Positions 11,517 to 49,433 are shown, counted from the stretch's first letter. The stretch is DNA of 64,000 nt from an uncultured Ruminococcus sp. (GCA_964466295.1 CAYXRC010000001.1:146640-210639), one strand, 5' to 3'. Notes: generated by a model from the sequence alone, not told the origin. Made by a program: numbers and translations.

Positions 11517-11518
11517 TA

Positions 11519-19427: not shown

Positions 19428-19516
19428 CCGAGGTAGCTAATCCCGATTGATTCATCATGATGGGTTAAAATACTGCTATTGAGAGGTTGTCCCATCGAAC
19501 TTCAATAACATCTTAC

Positions 19517-29561: not shown

Positions 29562-29582
29562 TATAATAAGCCCTTTCTATGT

Positions 29583-29981: not shown

Positions 29982-30004
29982 TTCTCTCCTTTAAATTCTT
30001 TAAT

Positions 30005-30988: not shown

Positions 30989-31051
30989 CGTTTAAGTCCT
31001 TTCATAAGTAAATTTTAATTTATTATATTAACTGCCGTTTGGCAGATAACA

Positions 31052-32395: not shown

Positions 32396-33134
32396 ACGCC
32401 ATCAACTCCTTTGCCTTTCTTGATGAATAAGGACAGGTATTTCCTCCGGCAAGCTCCAAAATACTGTTTTTTCGGTCTCCCGATATTTTCTGAATTTTAT
32501 CAGCATTGACTATTATCGCTCGGTGGCATCTGAAAAATCTATCATCAAGCATATTTTGAATTTCTTTTAAAGGAATATGACTTTCTATCGTCCTTTTGTA
32601 AGTGTGAATGATTGTTTTTCTCCCGATACTATCTGTTTCTATGTAGATTATATCGTTTAAAATCACAGGAAAATAATCTAATCCCGATTTCACCATAATA
32701 TGTGTGTCCTCATTCTTAATTACTGCACTTTCTGTTACAATAGTTTCAAAACATTCCAAAAGTCGTGACTTGTAATTGGCACTTGCTTTATCTATAAAAT
32801 CAAGTATTTTGAGTTTATAAGAAAGTGCTTTCATTCCAAGCTCAGTATGTGAGGTTATGAAAACAATGTAGCCCAGATAATCATATTCCCTTATCTTCTG
32901 AGCAAGTGTTAAACCGTTTATACGGTCTTTAAGATCGATGTCCAATAAATATATATTCCGAGTTCCGTCTGTGTTTTTGGCAAATGTTATTGCTTTTTCA
33001 AAGTCACTCTGCAATTGATAACAGTCGATTTCAATTTCAGATTCAGCAAAATATTCAAAAACAACAGATGAGATTCTGTTTATTGCATTTTTAACATCTT
33101 CGCATATAATTACATTGAATTTCAATTTTCTCAC
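32376..33134 (-). CDS. LytTR-family response regulator (AgrA/ComE-like)
   Basis: Receiver domain followed by a C-terminal LytTR DNA-binding domain (...FFRCHRAIIVNADKI...). It overlaps the kinase gene by 20 bp. Confidence 0.8.
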   Translation of the reverse strand: MRKLKFNVIICEDVKNAINRISSVVFEYFAESEIEIDCYQLQSDFEKAITFAKNTDGTRNIYLLDIDLKDRINGLTLAQKIREYDYLGYIVFITSHTELGMKALSYKLKILDFIDKASANYKSRLLECFETIVTESAVIKNEDTHIMVKSGLDYFPVILNDIIYIETDSIGRKTIIHTYKRTIESHIPLKEIQNMLDDRFFRCHRAIIVNADKIQKISGDRKNSILELAGGNTCPYSSRKAKELMAFVGKIV

Positions 33135-34104
33135 CTCCCAAACTGCGATTGACTACATTATATAAACAATTTTTTTATTTTTAAATAGATTGTGCGTGAA
33201 TGATACAAATTGACGGGTGAATGCAACAAAAAATGATGTTTTTCTTCAAAAAACAAAAAGATGCTATCCTCATTATGTAAAAGAAGATAGCATCTTATGT
33301 TTTATGTATGCGAAGGGCAAATACCCTCCGCTATGCCACGGTCAAAGTGTTCTTGTCAAAGAATCGCCTACCGCAGTCATCTTATATATACTAACGAAAG
33401 AAAGGAGTGTCTACTAACGACACAATTACAAAAGAAAGATGTCAATTTCCTACTGACATCCTTATTATACCGTACACTTTTTCGTTTGTCAGCGCTTTTT
33501 CCGAAATTTTTTAAAATTTTTTCACAGAAAAAGACAACCCAGATTTACTGAATTGTCCCTTCTTAAAAGTTTAGCATTTCATCGTCATAGATTCTTACCC
33601 ATATCTTTTGTAAGAAGTTGTAAGAGAACCATAACTGCATATTTTTATATTATCATCATTAAAACTATCCGTCAATTTTTAAGATGTCAAAAGACAGCCG
33701 AATTCTGGCTGCCTCTTGGTATATTTATTCATTCTTAGATAGGAGTAGTTTAAGAGAGTGGCTTGAGCAATCTCAAACTATCGCATTAACAATATACATC
33801 GTATAGAATCTGTTGTCAAATTTAAAAATACGCTACCGAACCCGATAGCGTATTCCCGACTGCATATGTCAGTCGGTTGAAATATTTTTGAAAGTAAAAG
33901 TGATTACATTGATAGATTTATACAATTTGAAGAAGATTCCTTTTTGTAAATGCGTATTAAATAATTATAAGCATTTTGCACAATTTTGAATCAATATTTT
34001 CTGTGTGGATATTTCTACAAAAATATTGATTTCTCTATATTTTTCTGATACAATCTATAATGTAGTTTTATAAATTTATATTACTATTGAAGGAGATTAA
34101 TTTT

Positions 34105-34308
34105 ATGTCAGTTACTTACAAAAAGTTAAGACTTATGCTAGTTGAAAAAAATATGAAAAAGAAAGACTTGCAAGCACAGGCAGGTCTTACCCATCATGAG
34201 ATGTTGAAGCTAAGAAATGATATGAGTATTACTACTGATACAATTGGTAAGATATGCAAGGCTCTTGATTGTCAAGCAGATGATATTATGGAGTTTGTTG
34301 AAGAATAA
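34105..34308 (+). CDS. XRE-family HTH protein; putative controller (C) protein of the adjacent R-M system
   Basis: 67 aa, HTH_3 (KKKDLQAQAGLTHHEMLKLRN). It lies immediately upstream of and co-directional with a C5-methyltransferase. Confidence 0.6.
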   Translation: MSVTYKKLRLMLVEKNMKKKDLQAQAGLTHHEMLKLRNDMSITTDTIGKICKALDCQADDIMEFVEE

Positions 34309-34327
34309 TTGATTGGAGATAACATAT

Positions 34328-35386
34328 ATGTTTTTTAAATTAGGCGAATTGTTTTGCGGTCCAGGCGGTATTGCTTGCGGTGCAATGAAATCAAAGAGTT
34401 CTGATGGCAAATATGGTGTAACTCATGCATGGGCAAATGATTATGATGAAGATTCATGCGAAACATACAAAAAGAACATTTGCCCCGATTCACCAGAAAG
34501 CGTTTATTGTGGTGATGTAAAAAATTTGGATATAAAATCTTTGGCACCGATTGATGCATTTTGCTATGGATTTCCATGTAATAGCTTTTCCAATGTAGGA
34601 AAGCATCAAGGCTTTGAAAATGAAAAATTCGGACAGTTATATTGGTATGGCATTGAAGTCTTAAAACATCATAAACCACAGTGGTTTGTGGCAGAAAATG
34701 TATCCGGAATACGTTCTGCGGGGTCTGGTGATTTCAAAACCATTTTGAATGATATGCGTGAAGCTGGATACAAATTGAATATTAATCTTTATAAATCCGA
34801 ACAATATGGTATTCCCCAAACAAGACATAGGGTAATTATTGTTGGAATCAGAAATGATATACCGGTTGAATATAAAGTGCCTGATCCTGCTATGTATGTA
34901 GACTGTGATATAACTTCAGGCAAGGCTCTTGAAAAGATTCCAGAAAATGCACCCAATAATGAATCTAGAAAACTTTCAAAAGATGTAGTGCGAAGATTAT
35001 CACTTATTAAACCAGGAGAAAATGTATGGCAGGCGGAAGAACGCTTGGGAGATAAATTCCCAGATGAATTAAAAATACACACCAAAACAAAAATAAGTCA
35101 GATATATCGTAAACTCGACCCGAAAAAACCGGCTTACACAGTTACGGCAGCTGGTGGTGGTGGCACTTTTATGTATCATTGGACGGATCGTGAACTTACA
35201 AATCGTGAAAGAGCAAGGATTCAAACTTTTCCTGATGATTATGAATTTATAGGAAATTACAGTAGTGTAAGAAAACAAATTGGCATGGCTGTACCATGCA
35301 AATTATCCGAAGTGGTAATTACTGCAATTCTTAATTGTTTTGCGGGAATAGACTATCCTTCAATAAAACCGAATATGGAGGAATAA
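34328..35386 (+). CDS. DNA cytosine-5 methyltransferase (R-M methylase 1)
   Basis: FCGPGGIACG (motif I), GFPCNSFS (motif IV) and AENVSG (ENV). Confidence 0.9.
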   Translation: MFFKLGELFCGPGGIACGAMKSKSSDGKYGVTHAWANDYDEDSCETYKKNICPDSPESVYCGDVKNLDIKSLAPIDAFCYGFPCNSFSNVGKHQGFENEKFGQLYWYGIEVLKHHKPQWFVAENVSGIRSAGSGDFKTILNDMREAGYKLNINLYKSEQYGIPQTRHRVIIVGIRNDIPVEYKVPDPAMYVDCDITSGKALEKIPENAPNNESRKLSKDVVRRLSLIKPGENVWQAEERLGDKFPDELKIHTKTKISQIYRKLDPKKPAYTVTAAGGGGTFMYHWTDRELTNRERARIQTFPDDYEFIGNYSSVRKQIGMAVPCKLSEVVITAILNCFAGIDYPSIKPNMEE

Positions 35387-35389
35387 ATA

Positions 35390-36469
35390 ATGATTCAAAA
35401 AGTAGATACCATAACAGGATTGCCAACATTTATAGTTTCCGATTTTGATGAACCTGTTTTATATACACCCGCAAGAACCGAATTCGCTCGCCCTTGTTTT
35501 TCTTTAAAGATAATCACTGCCTTTACTGATTGTGAAAGAATTTCTACTCATATGATTAAACTTGCAGAAGGTATGAAAAACAATAGATTACTTAAAGGTT
35601 TATCGGTTGAGATAATTCTCGGAATGACAAAATCAAGCCTTTCACAGAAAAAGCATGAGGATATATGTCGTTTGGTCAGGTTTTTAAATGATGCAAAAGA
35701 TATGCCTAAAATATCTTGCAGATATATCTGTCAAGGACCGGAAGTTCATTCTAAAGTATATATTTGGTCAAGTCATGATGAGGTAACAAATGAACTTCCT
35801 TGTATAGCATTTTGTGGTTCACTAAACTATACAATGAATGCTTTCTATAAACGAAGAGAATCGGTGAGTATGTGTAATTCACTTGAAGCATACATGTACT
35901 ATAAAAATCTTCTACCTGATACAATAGATTGTTTTGACCCAGATGTTTCTGAAAAACTCAAAAATGTAATGAATAACACTTCGGATACATTTGTGGAACC
36001 AGATAATTCTGAAAAGGATTATCTTACATATGACGCAGAAACACCAGTTGATACTTTAACTGTTTCTCTTTTAAGAGCTGACGGCAGTGATACTGGATAT
36101 GGCTCGGGAATAAACTGGGGAATTCGCAAAAATGGTACAAAAAGAAATCAAAACCAGGCGTATATTCCTTACAATCGTAAAGATAAGAAAGCAGGTTTCT
36201 TCCCTGACAGAGAAAATCCGGATGACGAAAATTGTCCTATGTTCAAGGTTATTACAAAAGACTTTGGTTCTTTCCATATGCGAATGGCACAACAAGGAAA
36301 CAAAGCACTTCATAGCGTTGAAAGTAATGCAATTTTAGGCGAATGGATAAGAAAACGAATTAACGCTCCTTCAGGAGGTTATGTTACAAAACAAATGTTG
36401 GAATTATATGGCAAGACTGCCGTTACATTCCGCAAATACGAAGACGGTACATATTTATTAGATTTTTAG
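35390..36469 (+). CDS. putative PLD-family (HKD) type II restriction endonuclease (NgoFVII/BfiI-like)
   Basis: HSKVYIW...GSLNYT resembles an HxK...GSxN phospholipase-D nuclease motif. The gene lies between two C5-methyltransferase genes with 3-25 bp spacing. Confidence 0.4.
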   Translation: MIQKVDTITGLPTFIVSDFDEPVLYTPARTEFARPCFSLKIITAFTDCERISTHMIKLAEGMKNNRLLKGLSVEIILGMTKSSLSQKKHEDICRLVRFLNDAKDMPKISCRYICQGPEVHSKVYIWSSHDEVTNELPCIAFCGSLNYTMNAFYKRRESVSMCNSLEAYMYYKNLLPDTIDCFDPDVSEKLKNVMNNTSDTFVEPDNSEKDYLTYDAETPVDTLTVSLLRADGSDTGYGSGINWGIRKNGTKRNQNQAYIPYNRKDKKAGFFPDRENPDDENCPMFKVITKDFGSFHMRMAQQGNKALHSVESNAILGEWIRKRINAPSGGYVTKQMLELYGKTAVTFRKYEDGTYLLDF

Positions 36470-36493
36470 TATATACAAGGTTGGTGAGATGTT

Positions 36494-37435
36494 ATGCCTA
36501 ATATATGTAGCTTGTTTGCCGGTATAGGAGGCATTGACCTTGGTTTTATACAAGCAGGGTTTGATGTTGCATGGGCTAACGAAATGGATGATGCCGCTTG
36601 TAAAACATATAGACATAATTTTAAAGATACAAATCTGGTTCAAGATAATATTAAGAATATTTCTGCGGATAGTATTCCTGATTTTGATGTTTTGACAGCT
36701 GGATTTCCATGCCAACCATTTTCAATAGCAGGTCTCCAAAAGGGGTTTAAAGACAGAGATGGTAATTTGTTTTTTGAAATAACCCGTATTATTGATGCTA
36801 AAAGACCTAAAATCGTTTTCTTGGAGAATGTCCCGAATCTCATTGAACATGACAATGGAAAAACATTTTTGGTTATTTTCAATTCACTTGCCCAATTCGG
36901 TTATACAGTTTACTATCGTGTTTTGGCATCAAATGATTATGGAAATCTACCACAGATAAGAAAACGTATTTACATAGTGGCAGTAAGAGAAGATTTGACT
37001 GATAAAATATATAGGTATCCCGACCCAATAGAACTTACAAAGATGTCGAGTGACATTATCAAGCGGGATACAAAGCAACATGAGATTTATTATTATACGG
37101 AAGATAGAATGTATAAGTATTTACGATCGCACATGAATGATAAAATGGCAATATATCGTATTACTGATAATGAAGTACGATGGACGAAAAATAGAATGTG
37201 TCCAACACTGACAGCTAATATGGGGACTCGCAAAGATCGCGTCCACGTAGTATGGGATGATTTTGGAATTCGTAAATTAACACTCAGGGAATGTCTTGAT
37301 TTTCAAGGATTCCCTCAGGATTATTATTTTCCGAATACCATTACGATAGATGATGCATATAAGCAAATAGGAAACACTGTTTCTGTTCCTGTAATTAAAA
37401 GATTGGCAGAGACGATAAAAACATTAGTTGAATAA
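36494..37435 (+). CDS. DNA cytosine-5 methyltransferase (R-M methylase 2)
   Basis: FAGIGGIDLGF (motif I), GFPCQPFS (motif IV) and LENVPNL (motif VI). Confidence 0.9.
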   Translation: MPNICSLFAGIGGIDLGFIQAGFDVAWANEMDDAACKTYRHNFKDTNLVQDNIKNISADSIPDFDVLTAGFPCQPFSIAGLQKGFKDRDGNLFFEITRIIDAKRPKIVFLENVPNLIEHDNGKTFLVIFNSLAQFGYTVYYRVLASNDYGNLPQIRKRIYIVAVREDLTDKIYRYPDPIELTKMSSDIIKRDTKQHEIYYYTEDRMYKYLRSHMNDKMAIYRITDNEVRWTKNRMCPTLTANMGTRKDRVHVVWDDFGIRKLTLRECLDFQGFPQDYYFPNTITIDDAYKQIGNTVSVPVIKRLAETIKTLVE

Positions 37436-37492
37436 CGATAGTGAACTTGTGAGTATTATTTGATGGATAAATAAAAAATAAGAGGATTTAAT

Positions 37493-39484
37493 ATGTATTT
37501 AAAAGAATTTGTAATAAAAAATTTTAGAGTTTTTGGAGAAGACGGAATACATTTGATGTTTAATGGAGGAGTAAATGCCATTATTGGTGAGAATAATTCT
37601 GGTAAATCTGCTATAATTGATGCAATAAGAATAGCATATTCAACGATGAATTATAAAAAGGATATATTTTTTTCAAAATCAGATTTTCATATGAATGATA
37701 ATGGAAAAGTTGCTGATTTTTCACAATTCGATATATATTTAGATGATGTACCCAAAAGACTTATTGAAATCTGGAATCCTGAAAGTGAAGGGGCAACAGG
37801 TGGAGAATTTCATGTGCGCTTTGAAAAAGCTATTAACCCTAATGGAATTGAGAAGATTAAAGTTATATCTTGGGGATTCGGAAATGAAGGTAATCAATTA
37901 ACTTCAAATACATTTGAGGCAGTAGAACTTGTTTTTTTGGGAGCATTAAGAGATTCGGAAAATGAAATGAAACCTGCAAAAAATAGCAGACTAGCACAGT
38001 TGTTGAAGAATTTAGTTCCAGAAGAAAGCGGAAGAAATGAACTTGTTAATGTGTTAAGTGAAGCAAATAACGAATTATTAAAGAAAGAACAGCTTAAAAA
38101 AACTCGTGATACAATTAACCAAAACCTAACCCAGATTGAACAGGAGTTTTTAAACCAACAAATCGATATAGGGCTAGTTGAACCTCGTTTTGAGTCTATT
38201 GCATCATCCTTAAGAGCTTGGGTTAAACCTAAATGGGTTTTAATCGAAAAAGATGATGAACTTTATGACAAAGCACAACAATTTTCGCAAGACAATCCGA
38301 AAGCAAAAAAAGTTCATGATACAGAAACCGGTATCTTTTTTGAAAGTTCCATAATAAATGATGATTTAGATATAGATCAAGATATTATAGAAAGACTTAT
38401 TATGGTTTCTAATCGTTCTTTTGAGTTATATCAAAATGGATTGGGGTATAATAATTTACTCTTTATGTCAGCTGTGCTTGGAGATATGTCCATAAGAAAA
38501 GATGGTATTTTTCACAACTTACTTCTGATAGAAGAACCAGAGGCTCATTTGCATCCGCAATTGCAACAATTGGTACACAAATTCTTATCTGTAACGAATA
38601 AAAAAGATTCTCAGATACAAGTTATTTACACATCGCATTCTCCAACATTAGCATCAAAAGTTAAATTGACGAATGTAAATCTTATTTATGAATATAACCA
38701 CAAAAAATATTGTTTGCCCTTCTCTAGAACAAACCTTACCCAATCAGACATATTTTATATGCAAAAATATTTGGATGTTACAAAATCTCAAATGTTTTTT
38801 GCAAGAGGGATTGTGTTTGTAGAAGGAATCAGTGAGGCTATTTTACTACCTGAAGTTGCCAAATATATGCAACGACCTTTTGAAAAATATGCTGTTGAAC
38901 TCGTGAACGTAGATAGCGTAGCGTTTACTCCATTTGTAAATTTACTATCTTCTGATAGTGCAAAAACATGTTTTTCTAAAGTTGCTATTATTACAGATGA
39001 TGACAGATGTTCAAAAAAAGGTGCTGTTGATTATATTGACAAAAATCTCGATTATGATGATGTGTGCGAGGAGATATCTCAGAAAATAGTTAATGGAAAG
39101 CCATCAGAACGTTGCGAAGAATTAAAAAAAGAATGTATGAATATTGGGATGAACGTCTATGTTGCACCAAAAACATTAGAATTTGCATTATGCTGTACGG
39201 ATGATAATATTTGTTTTATGATTGAAGCAATAAAAACGGTTTATAAAGATTTAGGAAAAAATCTAGAAAATAAAATTAAAGACTTGAACGATATTAATCA
39301 AAAGGCAACATGTATATGGCTATTCATCAGAACAAGAGATAAGTGTAAAGGAGCAGTTGCACAATACATAAGTCAGGTAATTAAAGAACAGCGTATAAAA
39401 GAAGAAAATGGCGAAGAGCTTGATAAAAAATTTACTATACCAGACTATTTGAAAAATGCAATTTATAGTGTGACCGAAAAATAA
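37493..39484 (+). CDS. gajA: Gabija GajA-like OLD-family ATP-dependent endonuclease (ABC ATPase plus TOPRIM)
   Basis: N-terminal MYLKEFVIKNFRVF...IIGENNSGKSAIIDAIR (AAA_15/21 Walker A). H-loop EEPEAHLHPQ. C-terminal TOPRIM with FVEGISEAILL and IITDDD (DxD). Confidence 0.65.
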   Translation: MYLKEFVIKNFRVFGEDGIHLMFNGGVNAIIGENNSGKSAIIDAIRIAYSTMNYKKDIFFSKSDFHMNDNGKVADFSQFDIYLDDVPKRLIEIWNPESEGATGGEFHVRFEKAINPNGIEKIKVISWGFGNEGNQLTSNTFEAVELVFLGALRDSENEMKPAKNSRLAQLLKNLVPEESGRNELVNVLSEANNELLKKEQLKKTRDTINQNLTQIEQEFLNQQIDIGLVEPRFESIASSLRAWVKPKWVLIEKDDELYDKAQQFSQDNPKAKKVHDTETGIFFESSIINDDLDIDQDIIERLIMVSNRSFELYQNGLGYNNLLFMSAVLGDMSIRKDGIFHNLLLIEEPEAHLHPQLQQLVHKFLSVTNKKDSQIQVIYTSHSPTLASKVKLTNVNLIYEYNHKKYCLPFSRTNLTQSDIFYMQKYLDVTKSQMFFARGIVFVEGISEAILLPEVAKYMQRPFEKYAVELVNVDSVAFTPFVNLLSSDSAKTCFSKVAIITDDDRCSKKGAVDYIDKNLDYDDVCEEISQKIVNGKPSERCEELKKECMNIGMNVYVAPKTLEFALCCTDDNICFMIEAIKTVYKDLGKNLENKIKDLNDINQKATCIWLFIRTRDKCKGAVAQYISQVIKEQRIKEENGEELDKKFTIPDYLKNAIYSVTEK

Positions 39485-39485
39485 T

Positions 39486-41243
39486 ATGATAAATAAATTA
39501 ACCGATGAACAAGTTAAATTTCTACAGGCTGAAGGGAAAGTTGTAGTAAAAGCATGTCCTGGAAGTGGAAAAACTTTCTCTGTTGCGAATAAACTATTAT
39601 CTTATCTTCAAGATTGGCATAGTCCTCATCAAGGTATAGCCGTTCTTTCGTTTACCAATGTTGCTAGTGATGAAATTTTTAGAAAAGCAAATTCTATAAA
39701 TGGTAGCATCGCTGGGGTGGTTTATCCTCATTTTGTAGGAACTGTAGACAGTTTTATAAATGAATATATCGTTTTAAGATATGGTCATTTATATACTGCA
39801 AATAAGAACAGACCACAAATAGCATTAAAAGATATATGGAAATTTCCTTATAAGTACTGGCGAACCGAATGCCATAGAAACGGGTGCGTAGAGAATATTG
39901 AAAAATTTCATTATAGCATTGACGGAAAACTTTATAAAGAAAAAAATACTGTTGATTGTGAATTAGGTAGAGCGACAGCATTACCATGCGCTCAATACAA
40001 AAGAATTTTAGCAAAAAAAGACATCGTTTTCCAAAATGAAACAGCAACTTTTGCATATAAACTTATGAAAAAATTTCCGATAATTGTAAATGCTATTACA
40101 GAAAGATTTCCAATTATAATTATTGATGAGGTGCAAGATACATCTGTTGAGCAAATGGCTGTATTTGATTTGTTGAGCGCAAATGGTATAAAATCAATTT
40201 TTTTGGTAGGCGATCCCGATCAGGCAATATATGAATGGCGAAATGCAAATCCACAATGCTTTATTGATAAACTTAATAATGATAAATGGGATCATATTGA
40301 ATTAACTGGAAATTTCAGAAGCTCTCAAAACATTTGTAATGCTACATCATTATTTTCTGAAAGTTTAAGTGGGCATAAAAGTAATACAGCAATTGGGAAT
40401 TTTAAAGATGAGCCTGAAAAACCAATACTATTATTATATAATAATAAATGTACTGAAGAACAAGTAATTTCTTATTTTTTAGAAAAATGCAAGGCTATGA
40501 AAATCGAGATTTGTCCTGAAAATGTTGCTGTGTTAACGAGAGGTAGAATACATGGAGAAACTGACATATCAAATCTTTGGAAGAGTAATGAACTTGAAAG
40601 TTATGCACTATCAGCATATGAATGGAAAAAGGGCTCAAGAAAAGAGGCATATAAAGAAGCGTATCATGCCTCTTATTCAATGATATATAACGAACAAGCG
40701 GAACCTATAGATATGGAAAATAAGATACAGAGAGATATAGGAAAAGAAGTGTGGGAAAACTTTATAATAGATATTTTATCTGAATTCCCAGATGTTGAAT
40801 TAGGTATTGCAGAATGGGTAACACAATTTACAATAAAATATAAGGAAATATTAAAAGTCTTTGGATTGGAGATTTCAAAGCAGAAAAACATAGAGAATTG
40901 TTTTAAAATAAAAACTAGAGACACTAAAAATCCTACATTTAGAGAGATTCCGCTAAGAAAGTTTTTTGAAAAAAGAGTTGAAAGTTGCTATACAAGGTCA
41001 TCTATCCACGGAATAAAAGGAGAAACATATGACGCAACTTTATTGTATATCAAATCTCGCACAGGAAATACCATTACACCGAAGTTTTTAACTGAGGGTG
41101 CACTTTCTGATGAACAAATGCGTATTGCATATGTTGCAATGACACGTCCAAGGAGATTGCTCATGGTTGCGATGCCAGAAATTAAAGGCATAGACGAATA
41201 TCCACGGTTTCCGACGTCTTATTGGAATTATATTAGGTTATAG
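39486..41243 (+). CDS. gajB: Gabija GajB-like UvrD/PcrA-family helicase
   Basis: VVVKACPGSGKTFSV (Walker A), IIIDEVQDTS (motif II), LVGDPDQAIYEWRNA (motif III). It starts 1 nt after gajA. Confidence 0.65.
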   Translation: MINKLTDEQVKFLQAEGKVVVKACPGSGKTFSVANKLLSYLQDWHSPHQGIAVLSFTNVASDEIFRKANSINGSIAGVVYPHFVGTVDSFINEYIVLRYGHLYTANKNRPQIALKDIWKFPYKYWRTECHRNGCVENIEKFHYSIDGKLYKEKNTVDCELGRATALPCAQYKRILAKKDIVFQNETATFAYKLMKKFPIIVNAITERFPIIIIDEVQDTSVEQMAVFDLLSANGIKSIFLVGDPDQAIYEWRNANPQCFIDKLNNDKWDHIELTGNFRSSQNICNATSLFSESLSGHKSNTAIGNFKDEPEKPILLLYNNKCTEEQVISYFLEKCKAMKIEICPENVAVLTRGRIHGETDISNLWKSNELESYALSAYEWKKGSRKEAYKEAYHASYSMIYNEQAEPIDMENKIQRDIGKEVWENFIIDILSEFPDVELGIAEWVTQFTIKYKEILKVFGLEISKQKNIENCFKIKTRDTKNPTFREIPLRKFFEKRVESCYTRSSIHGIKGETYDATLLYIKSRTGNTITPKFLTEGALSDEQMRIAYVAMTRPRRLLMVAMPEIKGIDEYPRFPTSYWNYIRL

Positions 41244-41334
41244 AATCATAGTTTTATTTAAGAGCAATGGTTTTATATAATTTTTGTTTAAATATATGTT
41301 TATTGTAATGAATGAAGTAATAGGAGGAATAACC

Positions 41335-41685
41335 ATGATAAAATTTATTTGTTACCCCAAATGTACAACTTGTCAAAAAGCGAAGAGATGGCTTAATGAC
41401 AACAAAATTGAATATAATTTTCGTGATATAAAAGAAAATAATCCGAGTATTGAAGAATTAACAGCTTGGTACAAAATGAGTGGTTTGCCATTAAAGAAAT
41501 TCTTTAACACATCGGGACTTTTATACAAGTCGATGGAACTCAAAACAAAGATTCCAACAATGTCGGAAGACGAACAGTTAGAGCTTCTTGCAACAGATGG
41601 CATGCTTGTGAAACGACCTCTTATGATTGGTGATGGTTTTGTCTTAGTAGGATTTAAGGAAAGTGAATGGAGCGAGAAATTATAA
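41335..41685 (+). CDS. ArsC/Spx/YffB-family thioredoxin-fold protein
   Basis: MIKFICYPKCTTCQKAKRWL has a CxxC near the N-terminus. About 116 aa. RBS aggagga. Confidence 0.65.
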   Translation: MIKFICYPKCTTCQKAKRWLNDNKIEYNFRDIKENNPSIEELTAWYKMSGLPLKKFFNTSGLLYKSMELKTKIPTMSEDEQLELLATDGMLVKRPLMIGDGFVLVGFKESEWSEKL

Positions 41686-41700
41686 TTTAGAGGTGATTCT

Positions 41701-42723
41701 ATGCCATTACAAATCATAAGACAAGATATAACCAAAATGAAGGTCGATGCCATTGTTAACACAACCAACGAAGAAATGATTGGTTATAGTGGTGTTGATC
41801 TTGCTGTGCATGAAGGTGCAGGGGCGGAACTAGACAAAGAATGTGCTAAAATCGCACCTCTTGGACTTGGAACGGCAAAAATAACAAGTGGATATAATCT
41901 TGATGCGAAATATATTATACATACGTCAGGGCCTATTTGGCGTGGCGGATTAGTTGGTGAAAGCATAATTCTGAAATCTTGTTATTTAGAATCTTTGAAA
42001 CTCGCTGTTGAATATGGTTGTGCTTCGGTCGCTTTTCCTCTTATTTCGTCGGGCGTATATGGTTATCCCAAAGACCAGGTGCTTAAATTTGCTGTTCAGG
42101 TTATAACAGAATTCTTGTTTGAACATGAATTGATGGTTTATCTGTGCGTTTTTGACAGAACATCTTATGAATTCAGTCAAAAACTTTTTGCGGAAATAAA
42201 TGAATTTATTAATGATGAATATGTTGATAGCGACTGTGATGGAAGTATCGACGAAATTCAGACGATAAAAAATTTCTGTGTAATTGAAGACTGCATGGAA
42301 GCACCAAAGAAGTCTGCTCCAATTCCATCAGCCTATGGAAGTGCAAAAAATAAATCTTTGCATGAGTATATGAAATCAATGGACAAGTCTTTTGCTTATA
42401 AACTTTTTGACTTAATTGATGAGCGTGGTATGACAGATGTTGAATGTTATAAAAAGGCGAATGTTGACAAAAAGACTTTTTCAAAGATTAAGTGTAATCC
42501 TGATACATACAGACCGTCAAAGCAGACTGCAGTTGCGTTCGCAATAGCGTTGAAATTAAATCTTGACGAAACACAAGAACTCCTTGCATCTGCCGGATTA
42601 ACGTTATCAAGAAGCTTTACATTTGATAAAATCATCAGATACTTTATTCAAAAAGAGATTTATGATATTTTCGAAATAAACGAGGCACTTTTTGAATTTG
42701 ACCAAGTGCTTTTGGGCTGTTAA
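41701..42723 (+). CDS. macro-domain (ADP-ribose binding/hydrolase) protein fused to a C-terminal XRE-type HTH
   Basis: The N-terminal KVDAIVNTTNEEMIGYSGVDLAVHEGAG...HTSGPIW is a macro-domain signature. The C-terminal ...MTDVECYKKANVDKKTFSKIKC...TAVAFAIALKLNLDETQEL is HTH_3-like. Confidence 0.7.
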   Translation: MPLQIIRQDITKMKVDAIVNTTNEEMIGYSGVDLAVHEGAGAELDKECAKIAPLGLGTAKITSGYNLDAKYIIHTSGPIWRGGLVGESIILKSCYLESLKLAVEYGCASVAFPLISSGVYGYPKDQVLKFAVQVITEFLFEHELMVYLCVFDRTSYEFSQKLFAEINEFINDEYVDSDCDGSIDEIQTIKNFCVIEDCMEAPKKSAPIPSAYGSAKNKSLHEYMKSMDKSFAYKLFDLIDERGMTDVECYKKANVDKKTFSKIKCNPDTYRPSKQTAVAFAIALKLNLDETQELLASAGLTLSRSFTFDKIIRYFIQKEIYDIFEINEALFEFDQVLLGC

Positions 42724-42830
42724 TTTAAAAGTCCCCCGTCAAGCGACCAATTGAATATCAAAACAAAGTATAATGTGATTGTAAGGTTGAAAAACCTACG
42801 CAATCACATTATTTTTTGGAGGTATTTAAG

Positions 42831-43499
42831 ATGAGTGAAAAGATTAAAAACGGAATTACAGAATTGGTATTTATTTTGGACAGAAGTGGTTCAATGTCAG
42901 GGCTTGAAAGTGATACTATCGGCGGATTTAATGCAATGATTGAAAAACAGAAAAAGCAAGATGGTGAATGTTATGTATCTACCGTGTTGTTTGACAATGT
43001 ATCTGAGGTATTACACGACAGAGTCAAGCTCTCAGACATAAAACCTATGACTGACAGAGATTATACGGTCAGAGGCTGCACGGCGTTGATTGATGCTCTT
43101 GGTGGAGCAATTCATCACATTGGAAACATTCATAAGTATGCTCGCAATGAAGATGTTCCAGAACACACAGTATTTGTAATCACAACTGACGGGATGGAAA
43201 ATGCAAGTCGTAAATACAGCAGTGATAGAGTAAAAGCGATGATTGAGAGACAGAAAGAAAAATACGGATGGGAATTCTTGTTCATTGGTGCAAATATTGA
43301 TGCAGTAGAAACTGCTGCACAATATGGAATAAGCAAAGATAGAGCTGTGAATTATGTTCCCGACCCAACGGGTACGCACATCTTATATGAATCTGTGTCA
43401 GCGGTTGTTGGTAATGTTCGTGCAAATAAGTGCGTTGATAAGGATTGGAGCGAGGAACTCAACAAAGATTATATACGCAGAGTTAAGAATAGCAGATAA
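42831..43499 (+). CDS. von Willebrand factor A (vWA) domain protein
   Basis: ELVFILDRSGSMSG (MIDAS DxSxS) ... TDG. Confidence 0.7.
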   Translation: MSEKIKNGITELVFILDRSGSMSGLESDTIGGFNAMIEKQKKQDGECYVSTVLFDNVSEVLHDRVKLSDIKPMTDRDYTVRGCTALIDALGGAIHHIGNIHKYARNEDVPEHTVFVITTDGMENASRKYSSDRVKAMIERQKEKYGWEFLFIGANIDAVETAAQYGISKDRAVNYVPDPTGTHILYESVSAVVGNVRANKCVDKDWSEELNKDYIRRVKNSR

Positions 43500-43723
43500 T
43501 TGAGGATACACGAGCCATTTATTTGCCTTTTGTGGCCATCATCAGTCTTCGGAAGGTAATTTGACCTTGAATAAAATAAAATGCTATACGGCTCGCTTCA
43601 GGTGCATTTGGGACCGTTTTATAGTTGTGTATCGCTTCGCTATGTCGTAAATAAGCTAAATAACCGTATAAAACCAAAAAGGATCATGGATTAAATTGCT
43701 CCATGGTCCTTTGTTTAAGAGTG

Positions 43724-44761
43724 CTATTTTTCTATTAAATCATATCCGTTCATAATGAACTTTGTAATTTCGTTTGTTTTTACACGCATACCGACAGATT
43801 TAATTACATTCTTAATTAAATCTTCCGAAAGAGTAGGAATGTATTTTTTAAGACTTTCATCATTCTCCATCAATTCATTAAAGAGTTTTATGAGCAAGTC
43901 ATTTTTGCGTGTTATATTTTTCGGATAACCTCTTGATATAAGTGCCATATTGTTATCGAAATTCGGTGCTAAACCTAAAATTTCACCGGTATCGGCATCT
44001 CTTAAAACACCGAAGTTGAAGGTGTGTCTGTCAGGGTTTGCACAGATTGTATCTAAGAACAACATCTTTACATAGTCGCCAGCTGCATCCGGACAAATCA
44101 TTTTAAGCATTTCAACGGATTTGATGTAGTATTCATCATCGCCCAGGATGTTAAAAGCAGGTTCAAAATTTACAAGGGCATTATCGGTGAAATCTTTTGT
44201 TTTAATAACACCGTTGCCACGTTCATATTCTGCCATTTTGAAACCAAGTTCAACACCAAGTCTGTATATAAACAATTCAGAAAACATTTCATCATGGTTA
44301 GCCTTTTTATATAGCCACCACTGACCTTTTTTCAGTTTCCAACATTTTTCAAAACTACCGATAGTGGTAAGTTCGGGAGTTTTTGAAATTTTGCTGTTGG
44401 CAACCCTGTTAAAGCTGTCATAGTTTCCTGTAAGAGCGAGATTTGAGCAATAGTCATTATCGAATCTGACATCTGCATAAGTTAAATCTGCATTTATGGG
44501 TTTTATCCAATAATTGTCCGTAATTGTTGAGGCGTTGACCGACAATACGGTTGAAATATCATCTTTTGCTGTCATGCGAAGTGCCTTTTTGAGTAGCCGT
44601 GAGTTTGGTCTTTTACTATCTATTGCTCTGTTTTTTATCCACTTGAAAACATCATGCGAATATCGGAAATACAATGGCAATAAATCTTCGTTTATAATTT
44701 CAAGATTGTTGTCCTGCCACTTTACAACTGCAACATCTTTTGACATTATATAAAAATTCAT
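43724..44761 (-). CDS. divergent HipA-like / PI-kinase-fold kinase domain protein
   Basis: ICANPDRHTFNFGVL (catalytic-loop-like D.H..N) and LGLAPNFD (HipA LxPxYD-like). Confidence 0.35.
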   Translation of the reverse strand: MNFYIMSKDVAVVKWQDNNLEIINEDLLPLYFRYSHDVFKWIKNRAIDSKRPNSRLLKKALRMTAKDDISTVLSVNASTITDNYWIKPINADLTYADVRFDNDYCSNLALTGNYDSFNRVANSKISKTPELTTIGSFEKCWKLKKGQWWLYKKANHDEMFSELFIYRLGVELGFKMAEYERGNGVIKTKDFTDNALVNFEPAFNILGDDEYYIKSVEMLKMICPDAAGDYVKMLFLDTICANPDRHTFNFGVLRDADTGEILGLAPNFDNNMALISRGYPKNITRKNDLLIKLFNELMENDESLKKYIPTLSEDLIKNVIKSVGMRVKTNEITKFIMNGYDLIEK

Positions 44762-44925
44762 AGCAGTTCACCACCTTGTGTATGAGTTTGGATTTATTAT
44801 ATCGCATTTCTTTTGATATTTCAACGATTCTGAAAAAATATAATGAAATTTTCGTAAATAATGTTTATTATAATTGACAAAATCAAAATTTTAGTATATA
44901 ATAATAAACATTAGGAGGCGTTTTC

Positions 44926-45246
44926 ATGGCTAAAAAGACCGTTGATATATTACCTGCTACGCAGGACATACTAAGTAGCATGGGTGAGCAGATAAAACTT
45001 GCAAGACTCAGAAGAAATCTTTCTGTGGACCTTGTGGCTGAAAGAGCAGATATAAGTCGTGCAACCTTATGGAAAGTGGAAAAAGGCGATAAAACCGTTG
45101 CTATTGGAATATATGCCGCAGTGCTTCATGCATTGAATGGTATGGATAAAGATTTATTGCTTGTTGCAAAAGATGACACATTAGGAAGAACCATTCAGGA
45201 TTTGAATTTGACAGTACGCAAACGTGCGCCCCGAAAGGAGGACTAA
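44926..45246 (+). CDS. hipB: HipB-like XRE-family antitoxin
   Basis: HTH_3 (LARLRRNLSVDLVAERADISRATLWKVEKG). Its stop lies 1 nt before the hipA start. Confidence 0.6.
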   Translation: MAKKTVDILPATQDILSSMGEQIKLARLRRNLSVDLVAERADISRATLWKVEKGDKTVAIGIYAAVLHALNGMDKDLLLVAKDDTLGRTIQDLNLTVRKRAPRKED

Positions 45247-45247
45247 T

Positions 45248-46504
45248 ATGGCACTCAATCAAAAAACAATTTATGTTTATGAAAGCTTTAATTCGGATGA
45301 ATCAAATTTGATGGGCAGATTGTATGTCGGCGAAGGAAAAGGTTCTGATAACTTTTCTTTCGAGTTTGATGAAGCGTGGCTTGTTCAACACGATAGAAGT
45401 CACATAATAGACCCTGAGTTGCAGTTATATCCTGGCAGACAATACCCTGTGAATAAAAGTATTTTTGGAATATTTGCAGATTCATCCCCTGACCGTTGGG
45501 GACGTGTTTTGATGCAACGCCGTGAGAGAATTCATGCAGATAAAGAAGGTCGAAAACCAAGAAAATTAACTGATGGAGATTATCTGCTTGGTGTATATGA
45601 TGAGACACGAATGGGTGCAATCCGCTTTAAGGAAGACGAGAACGGACCGTTCTTGTCTGATGATAAAGAAACCGCAGCTCCCCCTTGGGCAACACTCAGA
45701 ACACTTGAAGAAGCATCAAGAAATTTTGAAAATGAAGAAAATCTGCTTAATGAAAAATGGTTGAATCAATTGTTGAAGCCAGGTTCTTCGCTTGGTGGTG
45801 CAAGACCAAAAGCAACAATTCAAGACACTAATGATGAACTTTGGATTGCAAAGTTCCCATCAAAGAATGATGAGTTCAATACAGGTGCTTGGGAAAAGGT
45901 TGCTCACGATTTGGCAAAGTTATGTTCTCTTAATGTTCCTGAATCAAAACTTGAAACTTTCTCTAAATTGGGTAGCACATTTATAGTAAAACGCTTTGAT
46001 CGTAATGGAGATAAACGAATACATTTTGCATCTGCTATGACGATGCTCGGCAAAACAGACGGTGCTTCATCGTCGGACGGTTCAAGCTATCTTGATATTG
46101 CCGGATTTATCAAAGCAAGCTGTGTATCACCTAAGAAAAGTTTAAAGGAACTTTGGATGCGTATTGTGTTCAGTATGGCTATTTCTAACACTGATGACCA
46201 TTTGAGAAACCACGGATTTATTTTAACAAAAAGTGGTTGGGAGCTTTCACCTTTATACGATGTTAACCCGACACCATACGGTGATGAATTGGCATTGAAT
46301 GTAAATACCGAGGATAATTCTATTTCAATTGACCTTGCAATAGAATCGGCACATCATTTTGGGCTGTCAGTTGATGAAGCGGCTGAACTTGCAAACAACA
46401 TAACAACAACAGTCAGAGACAATTGGGAAAAACTTGCAACAAAGTATGGTCTCAGCCGTGGTGCTATTGAATATATGAGACCTGCATTTAGTGCGTGTTA
46501 TTGA
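45248..46504 (+). CDS. hipA: HipA-family Ser/Thr kinase toxin
   Basis: GSSLGGARPKATI (P-loop-like), ISNTDDHLRNHGFIL (catalytic loop), LSPLYDVNP. RBS aaaggagg. Confidence 0.85.
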   Translation: MALNQKTIYVYESFNSDESNLMGRLYVGEGKGSDNFSFEFDEAWLVQHDRSHIIDPELQLYPGRQYPVNKSIFGIFADSSPDRWGRVLMQRRERIHADKEGRKPRKLTDGDYLLGVYDETRMGAIRFKEDENGPFLSDDKETAAPPWATLRTLEEASRNFENEENLLNEKWLNQLLKPGSSLGGARPKATIQDTNDELWIAKFPSKNDEFNTGAWEKVAHDLAKLCSLNVPESKLETFSKLGSTFIVKRFDRNGDKRIHFASAMTMLGKTDGASSSDGSSYLDIAGFIKASCVSPKKSLKELWMRIVFSMAISNTDDHLRNHGFILTKSGWELSPLYDVNPTPYGDELALNVNTEDNSISIDLAIESAHHFGLSVDEAAELANNITTTVRDNWEKLATKYGLSRGAIEYMRPAFSACY

Positions 46505-46523
46505 TTTTTAGGAGGTAGTTATT

Positions 46524-47096
46524 ATGCGAAAAAACTTTGGAGCGAAAGCGATTTTATATCCGATGCCGGTGTTGATTATCGGCACATATGACGAGGATGG
46601 GAAACCTAATGCGATGAATGCCGCTTGGGGTGGGATAAGTGAGGAAACACAGATTTCTATTTGTGTAGATGACGGACACAAGACTGCAAAGAATATGGTT
46701 AAAACAGGTGCATTCACAGTAAGCATAGCAGATGCGGAAAATGTTGTTGCCTGTGATTATGTGGGCATTGCTTCAGGGAATAAAGAGCCTGATAAAATAG
46801 AAAAAGCAGGTTGGCATGCTACAAAGAGTGAATTTGTAGATGCTCCCCTCTTTGATGAACTGCCTATGGCACTTGAATGTAAACTAATCAGCTATGACGA
46901 AGAAACTTGCAGACTTGTGGGCGAAATCGTAAATGTATGTGCTGATGAAAGAATTCTTGATGACAATGGTAAAATTGATTTGAATAAATTCAGTCCTATT
47001 ACCTACGATCCGGTACATCATACTTATCGTAAACTTGGTGATATTGTTGGTAAGGCATTTAGTGATGGGAAATTGCTTAAGAAATGTGTAAATTAA
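46524..47096 (+). CDS. flavin reductase-like (FMN-binding split-barrel) protein
   Basis: ILYPMPVLIIGTYDEDGKPNAMNAAWGG is typical of the Flavin_Reduct family. Confidence 0.7.
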   Translation: MRKNFGAKAILYPMPVLIIGTYDEDGKPNAMNAAWGGISEETQISICVDDGHKTAKNMVKTGAFTVSIADAENVVACDYVGIASGNKEPDKIEKAGWHATKSEFVDAPLFDELPMALECKLISYDEETCRLVGEIVNVCADERILDDNGKIDLNKFSPITYDPVHHTYRKLGDIVGKAFSDGKLLKKCVN

Positions 47097-47240
47097 CATA
47101 AAATTCGAGAATAATGATGAACATATAGTGTTTTAAAGTAAATAACATTCTTATATCCGAATATATATTTATTAAAATGGTAAAAACTATAAAAAATATA
47201 TTCGGGAGATGATACAATGTTTTATATTGGAGGTACAAAT

Positions 47241-48551
47241 ATGAAATTAACAAAAATTTCTGTAGACAATCTACATAACGTATTTGATTATACGGTAAAT
47301 TTTAATGAAGATATTACCTTTGTTTATGGTGAAAATGGTTGTGGAAAAACAACTTTATTAAATATTATTACATCAATAATATCGGGCGAAATATATCATT
47401 TATTTGAACTTGAATTCAAATCAATAGTTTTAGAATTCGTAGAGGAATTACAAGTTGATAAAATTATAATAAAGTATATTGATAATGTTATTCATATCAA
47501 CTTTGAAGAAGAAGAATATATATTAGAACGTATTTCGATAGATGAATCAAGAAGAGAAAGAATATTTGATTATTATTGTGATAAATATGAATTTCTTCGC
47601 AATATACAAAAAAGATTTGTGTCTGTGTATTTACCACTAAATAGAAAGAATAGTACCAATGAATTGAATTATAGGTATGATCGTTTTTACCGTAGAAGTT
47701 ATATTGAGGATAATAGTTTTTTTGTTGACAATCAGTATGATCGTTTTTTGGACGACGTGTTAGAAATTATCAGAAATAAGTATACTGAAATATCGGGAAG
47801 AATAAATAGAATTGATGAAAACTTCAAGACTAAAGTTATTAATTCTGTATTCAAACTGACAAAAAATAACGATGAAGATAAAGATGAAATCCTAAAATGG
47901 ATAACTAATCCCAAATATATAAGTAGTTTGGATAAAATAAAAGAAGATTATCTTTATGCGTGTGATAATTATTCTAATATTGGTTTAGATGATAAGTCAA
48001 AAATTGACACTTTTTTTGATTCGTTTAAAGAAGATTTGGAGAAATTTTCTAATAGTGAAGGCGAAAATCGTTCAATGTCATTAGATTTGGTTTTTAAATT
48101 TAAAGACCTATCTAAAATCAACAAAATTATAGAATTTGTTCAAGAACGAGAAGAGAATATTTCTAAAACAAAAGAACCGATAAATAAGTATCTTAACATA
48201 GTAAATAGTTTTATCAGTACGAAAGAAAATGGTAAAAAGATAAAAATTAATCCACGTGGTGAAATTTATCTTGAACAAAAAAAGAAGTCAATCAATGTTA
48301 AGAATTTGTCATCGGGTGAAAAGCAAATTATAACATTTTTCGCTTACATTATATTTTCACTATACGGAAAATCAGGTATTTTCGTTGCTGATGAACCTGA
48401 ATTATCATTGCATTTGAATTGGCAAAGAAAATTTGTTGAATCAATCACAACTGCGAACCCTAATTTGCAGATAATATTTGCAACTCATGCACCTGAAATA
48501 ATTGGCAGGTTTAGAAATAAGGCAGTAAAGTTAGAACCAAATGCAAGATAG
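47241..48551 (+). CDS. PARIS AriA-like ABC-type ATPase (AAA_15/AAA_21)
   Basis: Walker A FVYGENGCGKTTLLN near the N-terminus. C-terminal signature/Walker B LSSGEKQ...IFVADEPELSLH and H-loop FATHAPE. Confidence 0.5.
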   Translation: MKLTKISVDNLHNVFDYTVNFNEDITFVYGENGCGKTTLLNIITSIISGEIYHLFELEFKSIVLEFVEELQVDKIIIKYIDNVIHINFEEEEYILERISIDESRRERIFDYYCDKYEFLRNIQKRFVSVYLPLNRKNSTNELNYRYDRFYRRSYIEDNSFFVDNQYDRFLDDVLEIIRNKYTEISGRINRIDENFKTKVINSVFKLTKNNDEDKDEILKWITNPKYISSLDKIKEDYLYACDNYSNIGLDDKSKIDTFFDSFKEDLEKFSNSEGENRSMSLDLVFKFKDLSKINKIIEFVQEREENISKTKEPINKYLNIVNSFISTKENGKKIKINPRGEIYLEQKKKSINVKNLSSGEKQIITFFAYIIFSLYGKSGIFVADEPELSLHLNWQRKFVESITTANPNLQIIFATHAPEIIGRFRNKAVKLEPNAR

Positions 48552-48563
48552 GAGCAAATAACG

Positions 48564-49433
48564 ATGACCATAGTACAAGATGAAATACCCGCATTTGGCG
48601 GTGATGGAAATTTAGCAAAAAGTTTGCTTTGTAGTTCATCAAATGGAGTAAATTTCTTTGTTGAAGATACAAATAGAGAATTTGAATATGAAATCATATT
48701 TGAAAGACTTTTAGGGAAAGACATAAAAATAAATAGCGTTGTAGCTTGTGATGGTAAAGAAGGTGTTAAAAATAGTATAGCAGAATTTAGTACAGAAGAA
48801 TACCAAACAACAAACGGAATATGCATTTTTGTTGTAGATGGAGATTTTGACAATTTTTTTGAAACAAAACAGTCCTTAGACAATTTATTATATTTAAAAT
48901 ACTACAATATTGAATGTTACTTTATTGAGGAAGAATCCACAAAATATTATTTAAGAAAAAAACTTAAAAAAACTATGTCTGAAATTGATCCAATGATTGA
49001 TTTTGATAAATGGTATAATAATTTTGTGATAGATTTTAAAAAACTTTTTGCATTATATCTATTAGTAAAAGAAAATGCTCCTGATATCCCTAATGTGGGT
49101 ACGGGACCACATCGGTATTTAAATTCGGACGGACGTATTATAACTACTGAATACAATATGTATTACAACACCGTTAAGCATTTAGATACTGGAAATTCCT
49201 TAAATAATATGATTACTAGGATTGATGATTTTTGTAATAGTGATTATAAGAAAGTCATATGTGGCAAATACATGCTAGAAAGCTTACGAAGATACTTGGT
49301 TACAAAAACTAATGTGCAAATTGGCTATGATAAATTTAGAGAATGTTTGTTGGAAGTTTTTGATATTCAAAAGCTGAATTACATAAAAGAAGAGATATTT
49401 CACTATAGGAATAAGTTCTACTCGATAACTTGA
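48564..49433 (+). CDS. PARIS AriB-like DUF4435 / TOPRIM-OLD nuclease
   Basis: FFVEDTNREFEYEI (Toprim Glu) and FVVDGDFD (DxD). 289 aa. It lies 12 bp after the ATPase gene. Confidence 0.45.
   Translation: MTIVQDEIPAFGGDGNLAKSLLCSSSNGVNFFVEDTNREFEYEIIFERLLGKDIKINSVVACDGKEGVKNSIAEFSTEEYQTTNGICIFVVDGDFDNFFETKQSLDNLLYLKYYNIECYFIEEESTKYYLRKKLKKTMSEIDPMIDFDKWYNNFVIDFKKLFALYLLVKENAPDIPNVGTGPHRYLNSDGRIITTEYNMYYNTVKHLDTGNSLNNMITRIDDFCNSDYKKVICGKYMLESLRRYLVTKTNVQIGYDKFRECLLEVFDIQKLNYIKEEIFHYRNKFYSIT

Follow-up and report, generated by a model that had tools for sequence, protein, structure and literature searches.

The interrupted spoIVA gene and its junctions

The window analysed here is a 64,000-nucleotide stretch of DNA from an uncultured Ruminococcus sp. 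(GCA_964466295.1, CAYXRC010000001.1:146640-210639), with positions counted from its first letter. In this uncultured gut Clostridium the sporulation gene spoIVA, which lies on the minus strand, is split into two halves by a 34.8-kb insert, and it is this insert, together with the anti-phage genes that it carries, that is the subject of this study (Table 1). The guanine-plus-cytosine (GC) content is approximately 0.44, and so host-like, at both ends of the window, and a low-GC block (0.27-0.39) spans approximately 14.7-49.5 kb. The translation of the 5' part of spoIVA ends ...APSIHIM and then meets a stop codon just within the element. An identical 10-bp core, CAATACATAT, is found at both junctions, and at attL it is preceded by a conserved arm, TTAAGnACnTCnGTTTG, which is common to 14 related loci.

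Joining the two halves in silico at this core yields a continuous frame of 502 codons whose only stop is the terminal one; across the join it reads APSIHMMRADIE. The predicted empty site (attB) contains GCTCCGTCAATACATATGATGAGAGCGG and the predicted excised circle (attP) contains GTTTGTAGCGGACAATACATATAATGTGTAACAAACC. The element-side arms around the core are imperfect inverted repeats of each other, and nearly perfect ones in relatives, which is consistent with what is expected of a serine integrase. The gene for a large serine recombinase lies approximately 190 bp from attL. The preliminary description of this DNA had placed the defence genes within an element interrupting a spore gene, and the spoIVA halves, the 10-bp direct repeats, the restored frame and the junction-adjacent serine recombinase bear this out; we consider the sporulation-gene intervening element to be real.

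Table 1. Features of the spoIVA element and its borders, in window coordinates
Feature	Coordinates	Strand	Support
spoIVA 3' part, 91 codons	14453..14728	-	Translation MMRADIETQV...GGLICIIL, the SpoIVA C-terminus
attL, 10-bp core, spoIVA-3' side	14727..14736	-	Junction comparison
Large serine recombinase, presumed integrase/excisionase catalyst	14921..16636	-	Resolvase, Recombinase and Zn_ribbon_recom domains
55-aa open reading frame (ORF) just upstream of recombinase, candidate recombination directionality factor	16724..16891	-	Conservation in aligned loci
Weak N6A-like methyltransferase, NPPF motif	17491..18186	-	Weak match
C5 methyltransferase	18177..19427	-	Firm match
N6/N4 methyltransferase	19517..21088	-	Firm match
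pemK RNA motif, leader of N6/N4 methylase gene	21087..21166	-	Rfam RF02913, 71.5 bits
Small serine resolvase, backbone	23867..24466	+	Profile match
Primase-like protein, CHC2 zinc finger, backbone	25005..26747	+	Profile match
MazF/PemK toxin	26893..27291	+	Profile match
Non-defence cargo: two Cu_amine_oxidN1-domain surface proteins, AgrC-like kinase, LytTR regulator	27828..33134	-	
Helix-turn-helix (HTH) protein, probable controller	34087..34308 (likely start 34105)	+	HTH_26 4e-17
C5 cytosine methyltransferase M1	34313..35386	+	1e-72
PLD-family restriction endonuclease, NgoFVII family	35390..36469	+	RE_NgoFVII PLD 81.6 bits; B3-like C-terminal domain 73.8 bits
C5 cytosine methyltransferase M2	36494..37435	+	3e-87
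GajA (ATPase + TOPRIM nuclease)	37493..39484	+	PADLOC GajA 5.6e-179, residues 1-662; AAA_15 and OLD-like TOPRIM
GajB (UvrD-like helicase)	39486..41243	+	PADLOC GajB 1.5e-179
Spx/ArsC-family protein, anchor gene flanking variable slot	41284..41685	+	TIGR01617, 102 bits
MacroD/YmdB-type macro domain + helical C-terminal domain, backbone	41701..42723	+	Macro 9e-35
vWA-like protein, backbone, common in phages	42816..43499	+	phrog_7371 1.8e-55; VWA_CoxE 1.6e-4, below cut-off
Divergent HipA_C-like protein, PADLOC candidate PDC-M03A	43724..44761	-	25.5 bits against cut-off of 30.5
HipB-like HTH antitoxin	44926..45246	+	HTH_31 2.8e-7
HipA kinase	45224..46504	+	HipA_C 6.7e-50, full profile
Flavin reductase-like protein, second anchor gene	46524..47096	+	87% identical in L032
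AriA-like ABC ATPase	47217..48551	+	Top PADLOC AriA 2.1e-33; top PDB AriA 8ux9 3.5e-23
Divergent AriB-like DUF4435/TOPRIM protein	48564..49433	+	Homologues and fold match
spoIVA 5' part (ATPase + middle domains), 423 aa	49490..50761	-	Pfam SpoIVA_ATPase 1e-114, SpoIVA_middle 1e-57
attR, 10-bp core, spoIVA-5' side	49527..49536	-	Junction comparison

An independent Logan assembly (run SRR6824180) has HipA, the flavin reductase, AriA, AriB, the spoIVA 5' part and a binding-protein gene in the same order, and so reproduces the right junction independently. Neither PHROGs nor Pfam detected phage structural genes among the element ORFs scanned, and IMG/VR held no relative of the large serine recombinase; a prophage origin was not supported, given the absence of a PHROGs structural match among these ORFs and of a recombinase relative in IMG/VR. 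No plasmid matched window 41.3-49.5 kb.

Related elements at the same spoIVA site

Scanning species-representative genomes revealed 19 loci with relatives of the recombinase (58-97% identity), all of them in metagenome-assembled genomes (MAGs) of gut or rumen Clostridia, and the spoIVA 3' fragment follows the recombinase in 14 of the 19. The arm and core are conserved in the 14 junctions extracted, except that L006 has two differences in the core, and elements in many species occupy this one insertion site. Two loci, L014 and L017, have spoIVA sequence on both sides, approximately 11.6-11.7 kb apart (the 5' part is covered from residue 14 in L014, and by its last 42 residues, at the locus edge, in L017), so the size of the element varies about three-fold. 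The recombinase is closer between genomes than the spoIVA fragment is (in L001, for example, 94% against 78%), pointing to horizontal spread of the element between species.

The detached 91-codon fragment contains no stop codons in 13 genomes, and across these its median nonsynonymous divergence (pN) is 0.15 against a saturated synonymous divergence (pS) of 0.86. Judged by these substitutions, the fragment is under strong purifying selection. A pN so far below pS, with no stops, is hard to reconcile with a pseudogene, and we regard this selection as the best indirect evidence that the two halves of spoIVA are rejoined.

What the members of the family carry differs from one to another. PADLOC candidates PDC-S01 (two copies), PDC-S04 and PDC-M42B are found with a HipA-like gene in L014, and a mad3/mad8-like ATPase in L017, with a pooled PADLOC scan of 87 ORFs from related loci returning redundant methylase families only. 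The genes broadly common to members are limited to that of the recombinase and the 55-aa ORF that immediately precedes it.

Individual loci have features of their own. A 460-aa ORF between the recombinase and attL of L014 (11780-13162, minus strand) may represent an insertion sequence that entered this element. In L015, the closest recombinase relative (97%), positions 100-395 are homologous to window 33625-33924, just upstream of the restriction-modification (R-M) cassette described below, and lie directly beside the small-ORF promoter; this may be a copy without the whole 17-33.6 kb segment. In L013 (4342-7531) the small ORF and recombinase come directly after the spoIVA 5' fragment, on the attR side, and no spoIVA 3' fragment was found within 10 kb.

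A candidate directionality factor and the proposed excision

The 55-aa ORF is preceded by a ribosome-binding site and shows third-position variation across 15 aligned loci. We propose that its product is the directionality factor of the recombinase because the skin element of Clostridioides difficile uses a small direction-giving protein; the recombinase there is constitutive, and direction comes from a small protein dependent on sigmaE and SpoIIID (PMC5025042).

The surroundings of this ORF are also conserved in most related loci. Upstream of it there is a conserved block, TCATAtTTATGTACAAATACATAATTAC (window 16892-16960, minus strand), inside which TGTACAAAT agrees by eye with the C. difficile SpoIIID box KRTAACARK at 7 of 9 positions, and a conserved hairpin, AAGTGTGCTG...CAGCACACTT, lies between the ORF and the recombinase (window 16640-16720, minus strand). 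A sigmaE or sigmaK promoter upstream of the ORF was considered and dropped, the match being too loose to claim. A 90-aa ORF at 16638-16910 on the plus strand, conserved in tblastn, proved to be the reverse strand of the true 55-aa ORF.

In the mechanism that we propose, the recombinase and the 55-aa protein would remove the element from the mother-cell chromosome during sporulation, allowing SpoIVA to be made, and the forespore chromosome would retain it. SpoIVA is required for spore formation, and its gene is sigmaE-dependent in B. subtilis. Mother-cell-specific excision is proposed by analogy, and what speaks for it indirectly is the purifying selection on the detached fragment and the conservation of the site. 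In growing cells, the toxin-antitoxin and R-M genes of the element would probably also penalise its loss.

Three defence cassettes

The coordinates and gene calls given for 34.1-49.4 kb in the preliminary description all match ours; the ORFs are intact and tightly packed, with no frameshifts. Profile searches likewise did not refute the Gabija, PARIS and HipA assignments made there, with AriB the exception in that its support is indirect.

The first cassette, described earlier as a C-protein, a C5 methyltransferase, a putative PLD nuclease and a second C5 methyltransferase (34105-37435), does contain these domains, with the role of the first gene as controller being probable; HTH_26 is found in this protein at the head of the operon, and the PADLOC control-protein model did not match it. 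The RE_NgoFVII nuclease is flanked by the two C5 methylases in one operon, each of the three above Pfam cut-offs, and both the PLD and B3-like domain scores of the nuclease exceed theirs. This arrangement of an N-terminal PLD nuclease and a C-terminal B3-like DNA-binding domain is that of the NgoFVII/NgoAVII/BfiI-type enzymes, and phmmer linked the nuclease to no solved structure, including those of BfiI and NgoAVII. Its 90%-identity cluster has 17 members. The four genes move as a unit in L032-L034, where a 68-aa HTH protein precedes the cassette. On the basis of its domains, we take this to be a type II R-M cassette, and its possession of two C5 methylases suggests that the target site is asymmetric or degenerate. 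Such a cassette would cut unmethylated DNA and so protect vegetative cells from phage.

Directly after the R-M cassette come adjacent genes for GajA and GajB, the latter starting 2 bp past the end of the former. Both match their PADLOC models end to end (at about 1e-179), confirming the Gabija system previously placed at 37493-41243. With its ATPase and TOPRIM domains and UvrD-like helicase partner the pair resembles known Gabija, and GajA differs in being longer than its profile (663 aa compared with 588 positions) and in matching only OLD nucleases among PDB entries in phmmer, with the solved Gabija chains unlinked to it. By these comparisons GajA is a member of a different subfamily from that of the solved Gabija structures, which come from B. 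cereus. The system would act against phage in vegetative cells as a nucleotide-sensing nuclease-helicase complex.

The third cassette adjoins the attR end. Its first gene encodes an ATPase that the PtuA and AbiLi models match more weakly than AriA does, and that aligns in register with the AriA of the E. coli B185 PARIS complex (PDB 8ux9; residues 308-441 in both). Homologues of the second protein (31-37% identity, E 1e-31 to 1e-43) carry DUF4435 (PF14491), 18 of 20 aligned members of its family match PADLOC AriB, and the family has two invariant acidic motifs that are TOPRIM-like, FFVEDK and VDGDFD. An AlphaFold model of this protein (predicted local distance difference test score 87.6) has a sole significant PDB match, chain 8ux9_A of the PARIS immune complex (E 3.9e-5, probability 1.0, 15% identity), which we take to be AriB because chain B is AriA. 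We therefore accept the two genes, on homology and predicted fold, as a divergent PARIS pair. The PARIS-like assignment made earlier (47241-49433) thus stands directly for AriA, through PADLOC and PDB, and indirectly for AriB, through homologues and fold rather than direct profile matches. The pair differs from that of E. coli in the divergence of the partner, which is too great for the Pfam and PADLOC models, and in its very low GC (0.27). When triggered, the AriA ATPase would release the AriB TOPRIM nuclease, protecting vegetative cells.

These cassettes appear to sit in slots between more stable genes. In L032 the R-M cassette is 84.5% identical to window 34293-37443 and is followed after 12 bp by the Spx/ArsC-like gene (window 41322-41688), with the flavin reductase further on; window 37444-41321, which holds Gabija, is therefore a clean, discrete insertion of 3.9 kb. 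GC content also differs by block, at 0.27 for PARIS, 0.315 for Gabija, 0.34-0.39 for the backbone and 0.44 for the host. The preliminary description had the defence modules lying back to back; rather than seven such modules we find three cassettes in variable slots between anchor genes. A typical genome holds few defence systems, and three in 15 kb is far denser.

The element backbone

Between the two anchors, the Spx/ArsC-like and flavin reductase-like genes, lies a block that had been listed as further defence cargo, comprising a macro-domain-HTH fusion, a vWA protein, a divergent HipA-like kinase and HipB/HipA. The macro domain is secure, and the other half of the same protein has no Pfam match, its helix pattern alone hinting at an HTH. 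Direct support for the vWA domain is weak (VWA_CoxE, under the cut-off). The HipA-like protein is likewise weak when scored directly and gains its support from homologues, most of which carry a HipA_C annotation among the matches listed (2404 in all). HipB and HipA, whose genes overlap or abut, form the standard toxin-antitoxin pair that they were said to be, with a HipA_C domain and a preceding HTH protein.

The classification of this block as defence cargo is not supported. L024 shares 88.5% DNA identity with window 41322-46504 (5.2 kb), and in L024 and L025 the gene order is that of the window: MazF, DUF2130, ArsC, Macro, a 222-aa protein, HipA-like (minus strand), HTH and HipA. L024 begins with sequence that matches the region of the small ORF next to the recombinase, and these matches identify L024 as a compact copy of the same backbone; relative to it, window 27.3-41.3 kb is additional DNA, with the surface proteins, the Agr-like two-component system, the R-M cassette and Gabija. 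A complete gut phage encodes homologues of the Macro protein (44% identity) and the vWA-like protein (54%) at a distance of two genes, and 217 phage records contain the vWA-like protein. Macro homologues number at least 8000 candidates, the best 120 of which have 78-95% identity. PADLOC gave no match for the Macro, vWA-like or Spx-like proteins, and only candidate PDC-M03A for the HipA-like protein and HipA (2.6e-10 and 2.1e-10, both weak). DarTG was considered for the Macro protein and rejected, since there is no DarT partner, neither it nor its neighbours match PADLOC, and the upstream gene is Spx/ArsC-like.

We therefore read the Spx-like, Macro, vWA-like, HipA-like and HipBA genes as a conserved backbone whose function may be maintenance or possibly counter-defence. 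The HipA-like gene is the most ambiguous member because a homologue also ends an unrelated defence-like operon of methylase, protein kinase and helicase genes in L028. A related Macro gene is found in another serine-recombinase element (L021-L023), where an ADP-ribosylglycohydrolase follows it and variable genes precede it (a helicase with an MZB domain, NERD-UvrD, GmrSD and an SLFN-like helicase); these contexts point to the region upstream of Macro as a recurrent hotspot and to a possible module for ADP-ribose reversal.

The backbone as a whole comprises the recombinase, the 55-aa candidate factor, methylases, the primase-like protein, MazF, and the Spx-like, Macro, vWA-like, HipA-like, HipBA and flavin reductase genes. 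Of the three methyltransferases previously called orphans (17491-21088, minus strand), two are firm and one (17491-18186) is weak; no nuclease partner accompanies them, and we count them as backbone. The solo MazF was also recovered, with no obvious antitoxin ORF. The pemK RNA motif precedes the N6/N4 methyltransferase gene and not the MazF/PemK gene of the element. A role for the primase-like protein in replicating the excised circle is possible. Two small ORFs (33297-33738) near the AgrC-like kinase and LytTR regulator might complete an agr-like quorum-sensing locus.

Discussion

We consider it likely that this locus represents a large-serine-recombinase element inserted in frame in spoIVA, with a conserved backbone, R-M, Gabija and PARIS cassettes in variable slots, and excision that would occur in the mother cell. 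A number of observations weigh against this interpretation. The host is an uncultured MAG in which excision is inferred rather than observed, and an exact 28-mer for the empty attB was absent from JGI metagenomes (attP was not searched for). The 55-aa protein has no similarity to any family in profile searches, and the region upstream of its gene has a weak sigma-70-like match (9/12) and resembles mother-cell promoters and the SpoIIID box loosely. The recombinase of L013 is at the opposite end of the element from that in the window and the other loci. With regard to the cargo, there is no separate ATPase (N) subunit beside the nuclease, unlike in some members of its family, of which NgoAVII and CglI require one. 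The AriB-like protein has no direct match in Pfam, PADLOC (E 0.01), NCBIfam or PDB-profile searches, and its fold match is moderate (template-modelling score 0.47).

Some of these points would fit an ordinary integrative or mobilisable island that uses spoIVA as its attachment site and whose excision is stochastic, growth-phase dependent or reversible, rather than specific to the mother cell. The small-ORF upstream region offers no clear sporulation promoter beside its sigma-70-like match, a recombinase more alike between genomes than spoIVA implies inter-species movement, and the yin element in yabG does excise heterogeneously, in a stochastic or growth-phase-dependent manner (PMC10747680). 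We think such an island unlikely here, given that a single codon position is targeted and strictly conserved and that dividing cells losing the element would pay a cost imposed by its R-M and toxin-antitoxin genes. Moreover, SpoIVA is needed for spores and its detached fragment is under selection in 13 carriers, so excision must be reliable in any setting that uses the gene. It is much less credible that the insertion is a dead end, with spoIVA a pseudogene and the element fixed in a non-sporulating lineage. The failure of the 28-mer search to find an empty site would agree with this, as would the truncation of a second spore gene, spoVAD, beside another recombinase in the window; set against these are two intact spoIVA halves with a clean joined frame, a fragment with pN far below pS across species, and a recombinase and small ORF that are both conserved and intact. 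That the split arose as a chimera during assembly can be given almost no weight: the source is indeed a metagenome-assembled contig, but the SRR6824180 assembly reproduces the gene order through the spoIVA 5' part and the same left junction is present in 14 other assemblies.

A further question is whether the whole 15 kb should be seen as one defence island, in which the anti-phage modules that benefit the host would also include the macro, vWA-like, HipA-like and HipBA genes. Toxin-antitoxin kinases can act in abortive infection, and the weak PDC-M03A matches, the HipA-like homologue at the end of the L028 operon and the defence-like genes (GmrSD, NERD-UvrD) adjoining Macro in L021-L023 all lean this way. 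We are doubtful of it, since a compact relative retains the whole block with 88% DNA identity, Macro homologues are so numerous, the Macro and vWA-like genes occur in phages, which points to a mobile-element function, and neither PADLOC matches for the Macro, vWA-like and Spx-like proteins nor a DarT partner were found. Our preferred interpretation is a backbone carrying three defence cassettes.

The arrangement was initially called unusual, which now appears overstated in view of two precedents. The gin element, in gerE of Bacillus cereus ATCC 10987, is a non-phage element of approximately 29 kb that carries an R-M system (PMC5595907), and the C. difficile skin element carries a clustered regularly interspaced short palindromic repeat (CRISPR) array and a type I toxin-antitoxin system (PMC5961336). 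Like gin, the spoIVA element is a non-phage island with GC below that of its host, interrupts a sporulation gene, with short direct repeats at the junctions, and has a serine recombinase, a small accessory factor (a candidate one here) and an R-M system. It differs in having one large serine recombinase and a small resolvase where gin has three recombinases, in its target, in its uncultured gut Clostridia hosts, in cargo that includes Gabija and PARIS, and in that its excision is a proposal. With the skin elements in sigK of B. subtilis and C. difficile it shares a large serine recombinase at the element end beside a gene fragment; those elements are prophage-derived, whereas no phage structural genes were detected here, and the gene interrupted in this case is that of a morphogenetic ATPase.

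The R-M, Gabija and PARIS genes are ordinary or divergent members of known families, and the interest of this locus rests instead in the spoIVA-targeting family and its anchor-and-slot architecture. Full-text literature searches found no paper that names spoIVA as an interrupted gene, and it is not listed in the part of the text of a survey of gene-inactivating islands that could be searched (PMC7192596); spoIVA seems to be a previously undescribed target gene for such an element. More tentatively, we entertain, without yet favouring it, the idea of a widespread and undescribed family at one spoIVA codon position whose members are developmentally excised carriers of interchangeable defence cassettes. 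Were this so, dividing cells that lost the element would be killed by its R-M and toxin-antitoxin genes, and only the terminal mother cell could lose it unharmed; a defence repertoire would be kept in the spore germline and removed from the mother-cell (soma) chromosome, and spoIVA, which encodes a key morphogenetic ATPase, would join the few genes known to be under regulated gene integrity. If excision is confirmed, such regulation would be commoner in gut Clostridia than cultured examples suggest. For defence biology, the locus provides a clear case of anchor genes with swappable cassettes, as well as a divergent AriB family and a non-canonical GajA subfamily. The recombinase, 10-bp core and near-palindromic attP arms could also represent a ready-made unit for site-specific integration.

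Neighbouring features of the window

Beyond the element, an ORF at 58455-58889 (minus strand) encodes the C-terminal 40% of SpoVAD (PDB 3lma residues 205-333, E 1e-33) and is truncated, with GC of 0.36 immediately upstream. It is followed by a Fic-like protein (59157-60260), a second large serine recombinase (60304-61986, minus strand) with a weak DUF4368 match, and DUF6870 and DUF6076 proteins; this stretch (58455-64000) continues past the end of the window. Extending the contig rightward in search of the other half of spoVAD gave a 5.5-kb Logan contig only. Because the forespore is where spoVAD is expressed in B. subtilis, excision in the mother cell would not rescue the gene; a transposon may have hit it at random, or its truncation may have a less usual cause. 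In the left host flank, a low-GC patch at 9500-11700 (0.317) contains a small HTH-like ORF (9616-9891), a lipoprotein-like ORF (10023-10769, minus strand) and a 162-aa ORF, and may be the remnant of another island.

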